Below, in pieces: positions 29,614-29,835 of a stretch of 64,000 nucleotides of DNA. The notes under the pieces were generated by a model. That model saw only the letters and a program-made list of their open reading frames with translations, was not told the origin of the DNA and made no database searches. Position 1 is the first letter of the stretch, and every line of letters begins with the position of its first letter. This stretch comes from a virus. Taxonomy: Duplodnaviria; Heunggongvirae; Uroviricota; Caudoviricetes. Made by a program: the position numbers and the translations under genes. The stretch lies in the IMG/VR virus record IMGVR_UViG_2609459826_000002, one strand, 5' to 3'.

Positions 29614-29835
29614 ATGTGTAAGAGAGCGCAAATGAACCGTTATTTAACATGCTCGTTTTGTGGCGCAAACGAGCTGCAGGCAAAAAAAATCATCGCCAAA
29701 GGCGGAAAAGATGAAGTTGCTATCTGCTCTGAGTGCGTAGTCTTGTGTGTCGGGGCATTAATCAATAGCAGCACAACTATTCGGTTCACACCAAATGAGA
29801 ATGCGCCTTTAGATGCGCGGAAATCTGGAGGTTAA
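29614..29835 (+). CDS. Small protein with ClpX-type C4 zinc-finger-like domain
   Basis: 73-aa ORF; CSFCG...(20 aa)...CSEC spacing and context matching ClpX N-terminal zinc-binding domain. Confidence 0.55.
   Translation: MCKRAQMNRYLTCSFCGANELQAKKIIAKGGKDEVAICSECVVLCVGALINSSTTIRFTPNENAPLDARKSGG

Follow-up and report, generated by a model that had tools for sequence, protein, structure and literature searches.

A stand-alone ClpX-type zinc-binding domain encoded behind the repressor of an Escherichia coli prophage, a possible decoy for ClpXP targeting

Introduction

Several phages make small early proteins directed at the AAA+ proteases of their hosts. In lambda, cIII is an inhibitor of FtsH encoded in the PL operon, PinA of T4 and Gp4.5 of T7 are inhibitors of Lon, and Gp53 of SPO1 acts on ClpCP. 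These four proteins are competing substrates or direct inhibitors of the protease concerned. The protein described here, a stand-alone zinc-binding domain (ZBD) of the ClpX type, is likewise a small phage early protein that would spare other proteins from an AAA+ protease, and its gene, like that of cIII, lies in an early-left transcript. However, it has no sequence relation to cIII, PinA, Gp4.5 or Gp53, and what is proposed for it is mimicry of the recognition domain of the protease.

The domain that would be mimicked is ClpX's N-terminal ZBD. Effects of this domain in trans were reportedly seen for lambda O and MuA by Wojtyra et al. in 2003 and Thibault et al. in 2006. A related effect is documented for RssB, since purified ClpX ZBD added in trans at 5–20 µM inhibited the RssB-dependent degradation of sigma-S by ClpXP, and the domain was cross-linked to RssB (PMC7226468). 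The ClpX N-domain binds lambda O, MuA, UmuD', FtsZ, SspB and the exposed degron of MqsA; its pocket was mapped to L12, L13 and H23 by mutagenesis and to K27, I29 and A30 by NMR, and it overlaps the SspB site (PMC8808172). H23 is needed for the binding of both MqsA and SspB, and the strongest NMR shifts on degron binding include those of K27, I29 and A30 (PMC8808172).

In E. coli, the anti-adaptors IraD, IraM and IraP block the delivery of sigma-S to ClpXP by RssB, an outcome that is also proposed for the phage ZBD protein, and IraD and the ClpX ZBD have been proposed to share a site on RssB (PMC7226468). By contrast, the folds of the three anti-adaptors are unrelated to that of the ZBD protein, and they are stress-induced host proteins rather than products of phage early genes. 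The same free domain occurs in stand-alone and tandem ZBD proteins (PHROGs 5259, 20296, 6797, and 12435), many of them phage-encoded and all uncharacterised, and full-text searches of the literature found no paper on any stand-alone phage ZBD and no functional study. The protein studied here falls into PHROGs 5259 and 20296 (unknown function), and RefSeq already uses the name "ClpX C4-type zinc finger protein" for the product. The domain assignment is in public annotation already; the function would be the new part.

Operators and promoter of the early-left transcript

The stretch of DNA analysed, here called the window, is 64,000 nucleotides long and carries an E. coli prophage of SfV/e14 type. 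Its immunity region contains the following features.

28719..28495, minus strand: YdaS/Cro-like gene, divergent from the repressor gene
28702..28768, no strand assigned: cI/cro divergent control region, with operators at 28702-28718 and 28752-28768 and a weaker one at 28735-28751
28786..29460, plus strand: cI-like LexA-family repressor gene (Peptidase_S24, PF00717, E 1.5e-26)
29472..29499, plus strand: cI intrinsic terminator from a terminator scan, with an 8-bp GC-rich stem, a UUCG loop and a U-run
29500..29527, plus strand: PL-like sigma-70 promoter, TTGACA-16-CATAAT, matching 11 of 12 consensus positions
29507..29523, plus strand: operator OL1, TGTACCTATGAGATACA, of the 17-bp site family, between the -35 and -10 hexamers
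29527..29543, plus strand: operator OL2, TGTACCCAAGAGAAACA, of the same 17-bp family, over the end of the -10 hexamer and the start site

In locus L001, which is 99.4% identical, PGAP places YmfK/CohE of K-12 e14 (WP_000848748.1) at the position equivalent to the repressor. The terminator that follows the repressor gene has a fold energy of -11.6 kcal/mol (z -4.4). The near-consensus promoter that the first-pass annotation had noted ahead of the ORF is indeed present. It is identical in SfV and K-12 e14, and the whole set of terminator, promoter, operators and leader recurs there almost unchanged.

Operators were sought as a 17-bp pattern, TGTACC-N5-GDWACA (the second half being G(A/G/T)(A/T)ACA), on both strands with one mismatch allowed. 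The 64 kb gave 9 strand-matches against 0.98 expected, a number reached by none of 100 shuffles, and 7 of the 9 are accounted for by four sites, of which the cI/cro intergenic region holds two and the promoter of the ZBD gene the other two; because the pattern was derived from these same sites, it is their clustering that constitutes the real evidence. The earlier suggestion that TGTACC motifs bring this promoter under repressor control is therefore well founded, as the promoter shares its operator type with the cI/cro region. The layout matches the OR and OL/PL arrangement of lambda, and the ZBD gene is therefore the first ORF of a repressor-controlled early-left transcript. Judged by these signals, it should be silent in the lysogen and turned on upon SOS induction or infection.

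The ZBD gene and its start codon

The coding features behind the promoter are as follows.

29614..29631, plus strand: upstream in-frame ATG extension (MCKRAQ), probably untranslated, lacking conservation and a Shine-Dalgarno motif
29632..29835, plus strand: ZBD gene, encoding a stand-alone ClpX-type zinc-binding domain of 67 aa (PF06689, PGAP start, AlphaFold2, dN/dS)
C7, C10, C32, and C35 (67-aa numbering): cysteine ligands of the ZBD protein

An ORF of 73 aa had been assigned to 29614..29835. This ORF exists, but its start was set 18 nt too far upstream, and translation probably begins at the second ATG, 29632, rather than at 29614, yielding 67 aa. The downstream start is preferred because PGAP uses the second ATG in near-identical chromosomes (e.g., locus L001), because homologues are conserved only from MN.Y.TCSFCG on and have unrelated sequence upstream, and because a Shine-Dalgarno-like motif, AAGAGAG, lies 5' of the ATG at 29632, with none before that at 29614. 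The cysteine spacing read from the sequence at that time, C-x2-C ... C-x2-C, is found in the protein as CSFCG ... ICSECV.

Eight diverged alleles, each set in a different phage background, show saturation at the synonymous positions of the 44-codon core (pS 0.6–0.9) and a pN of ~0.2, with dN/dS of 0.09–0.30 where it can be estimated. Therefore, the ZBD gene is a functional coding gene and no chance ORF, and its core is under strong purifying selection. The conserved core comprises residues 1–46, and the C-terminal tail varies in both length and sequence, reaching 50–60 residues in some family members. Among 17 family members there is no variation in the ligands C7, C10, C32, and C35, and Phe and Ile residues are likewise invariant.

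Inside the gene, a run of eight A residues (A8, 29675-29682) is a frameshift hotspot. A7 in place of A8 causes a frameshift in 6 of 53 E. coli-type alleles among the fetched loci, or ~1 in 9, and unannotated 203-nt copies of the gene are found in several complete genomes, e.g., that of ST131 strain 4224. The change in run length could represent either decay or on/off slippage.

Domain assignment and predicted fold

The likeness to the ClpX ZBD that the first-pass annotation had noticed is borne out by an HMM search, in which PF06689 (zf-C4_ClpX) matches at 42.6 bits (E 5.6e-11, gathering cut-off 27) over residues 12–46 of the 73-aa form. The NCBIfam ClpX equivalog models give 27 bits against a cut-off of 359, matching only at model positions 5–46, which are their N-terminal part, and by these models the AAA+ module, with its pore loops and IGF loop, is absent from the 67-aa protein. 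Because the AAA+ module is lacking, the protein is not ClpX; it also differs from ClpX in having no N-terminal tail. A phmmer search against all PDB sequences returned ClpX chains only, the best being the E. coli ClpX ZBD (2ds5, 1ovx; E ~1e-4), with RYLTCSFCGANELQAKKIIAKGGKDEVAICSECVVLC as the ClpX-side stretch of the alignment.

For the monomer, an AlphaFold2 model was built from the 17-sequence family alignment, with a pLDDT that averages 75 overall and is 90–94 in the core. Its only significant Foldseek matches among solved structures are the ClpX ZBD entries 2ds5, 2ds6, and 2ds8 (TM normalised to target 0.79–0.83, rmsd 1.9–2.1 Å over 43–45 columns, probability 1.0); other zinc fingers give E > 0.7. 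The protein is thus predicted to share the treble-clef fold of the ClpX ZBD, a beta-hairpin followed by a C-terminal helix, at an rmsd of ~2 Å to the crystal structures. It also shares the C4 zinc site with its CSFCG and IC-EC motifs, and the K-K-I-I-A strand that lines the peptide pocket. From this homology we infer that it would bind zinc, dimerise and bind peptides.

The surface is only partly that of the host domain. Of the six mapped ClpX pocket positions, four have kept equivalents in the family alignment, namely L13 (as L/F/Y), K27 (K/R), I29 (I/V), and A30 (A), whereas L12 has become Y or variable and H23 has become L/M/R/Q. These pocket residues are in general the most conserved positions of the domain, and their retention may reflect fold rather than function. 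The equivalent of ClpX Y35 is a near-invariant Ala, the hairpin carries a 3-residue insertion, so that the two cysteine pairs are 21 residues apart as against 18 in ClpX, and the acidic helix face of ClpX (D38, D42, D46, E50, and E51) is mostly hydrophobic or neutral. Since the protein is only ~40–45% identical to the ZBD of E. coli ClpX, no closer than it is to the ZBDs of unrelated bacteria, a recent capture of the host clpX gene was ruled out. The enterobacterial family is defined by a KGGKDE insertion, an A-I-C-S-E-C motif, an L-C-V motif and its position after a repressor gene.

Genomic context

The neighbours of the ZBD gene include the following.

26608-27549, minus strand: HTH_36 replication gene, containing iterons
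29844..30119, plus strand: orf91 (PHROG 3195), the next gene in the ZBD transcript
30037-30282, minus strand: orf81, an 81-aa ORF (PHROG 3311) overlapping the 3' end of orf91 by 83 nt
30534..30579, plus strand: intrinsic terminator between orf91 and yfdR-xis-int, with a 13-bp stem and U5 (-23 kcal/mol, z -3.3)

On the minus strand, divergent from the repressor, the Cro-like gene is followed by CII/CP76-like, DUF4222, and HTH_36 replication genes. The last of these contains a cluster of four 15-nt iterons in tandem, together with inverted copies (27177-27251), which is probably the phage origin. In the other direction, the repressor gene is followed by the terminator, the promoter, the 70-nt leader, the ZBD gene and orf91, and then by orf81 on the opposite strand, an STnc100-like region ending in a terminator, yfdR, yfdT, a xis-like gene and int. 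An early-left transcript can extend into xis and int only by crossing the terminator at 30534-30579, since this stands between orf91 and yfdR. The STnc100 match (a Salmonella sRNA in Rfam; 30370-30583, plus strand) scores 42.6 bits (E 2.8e-7), below the gathering score of 47. A weak promoter-like site lies at 30282-30253, and orf81 is convergent with the early-left transcript.

Two tyrosine integrase genes stand in tandem on the plus strand, at 32215-33378 and 33543-34931. ARAGORN found no tRNA in the window, and related strains (L001) have tRNA-Thr and proA directly after the first integrase; the tandem integrases and the missing tRNA suggest that a second island was inserted at the same attachment site. 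No PADLOC model was matched by the ZBD protein or by either neighbour, and membership in a known defence system was rejected on this ground.

Distribution and cassette status of the ZBD gene

Of 5426 complete E. coli genomes, 98 (1.8%) carry the ZBD gene. The Salmonella phages 118970_sal3 and F1055 have close relatives of it, as do enterobacterial prophages from metagenomes. In close relatives, on every contig that includes the upstream flank, the ZBD gene is the first after an S24 repressor gene, co-oriented with it and separated by 117–420 nt. In 64 of 77 IMG/VR loci, an ORF of 80 aa or more lies upstream in the same orientation, no farther away than 500 nt, and almost all of these ORFs encode HTH + S24 repressors, of at least 8 sequence types.

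The slot after the leader (29611-29843; loci L022-L141) is hypervariable, holding at least 25 unrelated small ORFs among prophages, such as orf91-like genes, ymfJ, and genes for proteins of 54 aa (CxxC...CxxxC) and 68 aa (MHKTEPK...). In 18 of 130 cases, the leader is followed by a ZBD gene. In SfV and an O157 prophage, the leader is followed directly by orf91, in K-12 e14 it is followed by ymfJ, and the window differs from SfV by a ~230-bp extra block carrying the ZBD gene. The gene also stands downstream of two further leaders that are unrelated to this one. It is an optional accessory cassette without a promoter of its own, and a hypervariable slot at the start of the early-left transcript is the kind of place where host-takeover and anti-defence genes accumulate.

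More distant stand-alone ZBDs lie at other positions in phages and on chromosomes, and the distant PHROG members differ from the enterobacterial family in their genomic position. A scan of genome contigs found only distant, non-enterobacterial homologues. An exhaustive HMMER search gave 208 cluster representatives at E ≤ 1e-3, and among the 150 matches listed of these 208, short proteins other than ClpX that contain one to four ZBD repeats form the majority. Many non-ClpX proteins (e.g., P0015, P0018, P0030, and P0031) have 2–4 tandem repeats in 100–300 aa, and one protein of 2505 aa has 22 matched ZBD stretches; these ZBD-repeat proteins are an uncharacterised family.

In an Oleidesulfovibrio MAG (locus L145, 3425-4198), a 65-aa stand-alone ZBD (P0050) is encoded 75 nt 3' of a Mu-like prophage repressor gene and co-oriented with it, with a MuA-type transposase on the other strand. 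This ZBD gene may be co-expressed with the repressor in the lysogen. In Mu, ClpX acts on repressor and transposase alike, and for this reason the Mu-like repressor next to this distant homologue is of interest.

The leader RNA

A further conserved element separates the promoter from the ZBD gene.

29541..29610, plus strand: structured leader RNA of 70 nt, identified by covariation and a covariance model

The leader begins ~10 nt past the predicted start site and consists of an outer helix (P1), a small invariant hairpin, and a second helix (P2) of 5 bp closed by a 12-nt loop with the conserved sequence GGCRUAYGAAnn. In an alignment of 38 distinct sequences, 97% of the cells are paired, 9 of the 13 pairs have changed on both sides, and none of 500 shuffles was as good; slid controls were 25–46% paired. 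The invariance of the central 21 nt is uninformative, because these positions were fixed by the search pattern. The covariance-model score is 88 bits. Since the single-sequence fold is not unusually stable (z ~0.2), it is from covariation that the structure is deduced.

The leader is present, in one copy per phage, in 1706 of 5426 complete E. coli genomes (31%), including K-12, where it lies in e14 between ymfK and ymfJ, as well as in at least 120 IMG/VR contigs and in cultured phages including SfV, SfII, SfIV, ST64B, mEp460, mEp237, phiNP, ZF40, and YeP1-3. A 40-nt match (90–92%) to its P2 half occurs in the Providencia phages PSTCR5 and vB_PreS_PR1 (110–118 kb), in the latter inside an annotated repeat region. 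Rfam holds no family that matches the leader. It resembles the putL RNA of HK022 (PMC9378689) in size and position, but its sequence and architecture differ and it has no putR-like twin. Identity with the put RNA was rejected, as the covariance model found no match in HK022 and Rfam has no family for the leader. By analogy, the leader may be a put-like cis antiterminator or another kind of leader regulator, and it may prove to be a more novel and significant lead than the ZBD gene itself.

A possible decoy and its alternatives

From sequence and predicted structure, we tentatively favour the view that the ZBD protein could be a peptide-binding decoy, drawing adaptors or N-domain-dependent substrates away from ClpXP at an early stage of lytic growth, although this reading could well be wrong. 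Once the repressor, of the SOS-cleavable cI type, is inactivated, or upon infection, it would be the first protein produced from the leftward early promoter. It would then capture short peptide motifs of hydrophobic or basic character that normally dock on the ClpX ZBD, and the bearers of these motifs, that is, adaptors such as SspB, RssB, and UmuD together with N-domain-dependent substrates, would be diverted from ClpXP. As a result, one or more ClpXP substrates would be transiently stabilised early in lytic development. Its set of partners may be a different one from the host domain's, and we infer both the effect on ClpXP and the identity of any protected protein. No lambda-O-type substrate is encoded nearby, the Pfam assignment of the replication protein being HTH_36, and protection of a lambda-O homologue was rejected since this HTH_36-type, iteron-bearing gene does not encode lambda O.

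The PF06689 match, the structural matches to ClpX ZBDs only, the selection on the core, the pocket residues, the inhibition of RssB-dependent degradation by the authentic ZBD in trans, the early-left position and the nearly constant place behind repressor genes, that of the Mu-like prophage included, all speak for the decoy. Against it stand the loss of H23, Y35, and the acidic helix face, the change at L12, and the 3-residue insertion, the ~40–45% identity to the host ZBD, as well as the rarity of the gene and its frameshifted alleles; with an occurrence of 1.8% and ~1 in 9 alleles frameshifted, the ZBD gene must be dispensable.

The same surface differences would also suit a small dimeric, peptide-binding zinc module that acts on another target, with ClpXP uninvolved, which we consider somewhat unlikely. 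Candidate targets would be the adjacent S24 repressor (the ZBD protein acting as an anti-repressor or stabiliser), FtsZ (a division block like that of Kil or DicB), or another host or phage protein. That most of the 150 HMMER matches listed (208 in total) are short non-ClpX proteins indicates that the ZBD is a widely reused module, the gene's slot holds many unrelated small accessory genes, and the nearly constant neighbour, an S24 repressor of at least eight types or a Mu-like repressor, could itself be the partner. However, the ZBD core is conserved and the repressors are very different, so that a repressor partner would have to be recognised through the shared S24 domain, and phages of identical immunity (SfV, e14, and that of the window) work with or without the ZBD gene. 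Moreover, the known biochemistry of the fold is all on the docking of ClpX substrates and adaptors (PMC7226468, PMC8808172). Direct action on ClpX itself, in which the protein would form heterodimers with the N-domain or dock on it, and either poison adaptor docking or retarget ClpXP as a phage adaptor, seems improbable to us, even though the ClpX ZBD is a dimerisation domain (PMC7226468, PMC8808172). For the phage protein, too, a beta-beta-alpha fold is predicted, with a C-terminal helix that is long and more hydrophobic, and its variable tails, some of 50–60 residues, could carry cargo-binding or degron functions. On the other hand, the ClpX ZBD homodimer was reportedly very stable in the work of Wojtyra in 2003, which makes subunit exchange unlikely, and the tails are not conserved, which leaves no common cargo site.

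Given a position equivalent to that of lambda N, a covarying leader and a strong terminator downstream in the operon, the ZBD protein could also be imagined as an N-like antiterminator that binds the leader RNA and allows RNA polymerase to read through to xis-int. This idea is largely refuted by the distribution of leader and gene, and we regard it as extremely improbable. Only 18 of 130 leaders precede a ZBD gene, the rest preceding at least 25 unrelated ORFs; the identical leader stands without a ZBD gene in SfV, in e14 and in the O157 prophage; and ZBD genes stand behind two other, unrelated leaders, so that a dedicated protein-RNA pair of the N/nut type is ruled out. In lambda, the N antiterminator site is present in both early operons, whereas here each phage has a single leader copy, with no second copy in the PR operon, and the gene is not co-inherited with it; nor does the ZBD protein have an arginine-rich motif. 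A decaying passenger gene without current function is highly doubtful as well. Its rarity (98 of 5426 genomes) and the recurrent frameshifts at the A8 run (6 of 53 alleles, and several 203-nt copies) would fit such a gene, but strong purifying selection acts on the core despite saturated synonymous sites, the Cys, Phe, and Ile residues are invariant, and the same position has been kept across Escherichia, Salmonella and metagenomic relatives.

Significance

The decoy hypothesis can be put in a more specific form, which we think rather unlikely to hold as it stands. In this form, the ZBD protein would be a natural phage decoy of the ClpX docking platform that is released at induction and selectively stops the adaptor- or N-domain-dependent degradation by ClpXP, leaving degradation of the ssrA type intact. 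Candidates for the spared pathways would be RssB/sigma-S, UmuD/D', antitoxins such as MqsA, or a phage regulator. If this is true, the protein would be the first natural inhibitor acting at substrate selection by ClpX, and a ready tool for separating the N-domain-dependent from the pore-dependent functions of ClpXP in vivo, as well as a small genetic means of shutting off ZBD-dependent proteolysis alone. It would also mean that temperate phages modulate ClpXP by domain mimicry and not by blocking the enzyme, which would give ClpXP a counterpart of what lambda cIII is for FtsH and what T4 PinA and T7 Gp4.5 are for Lon.
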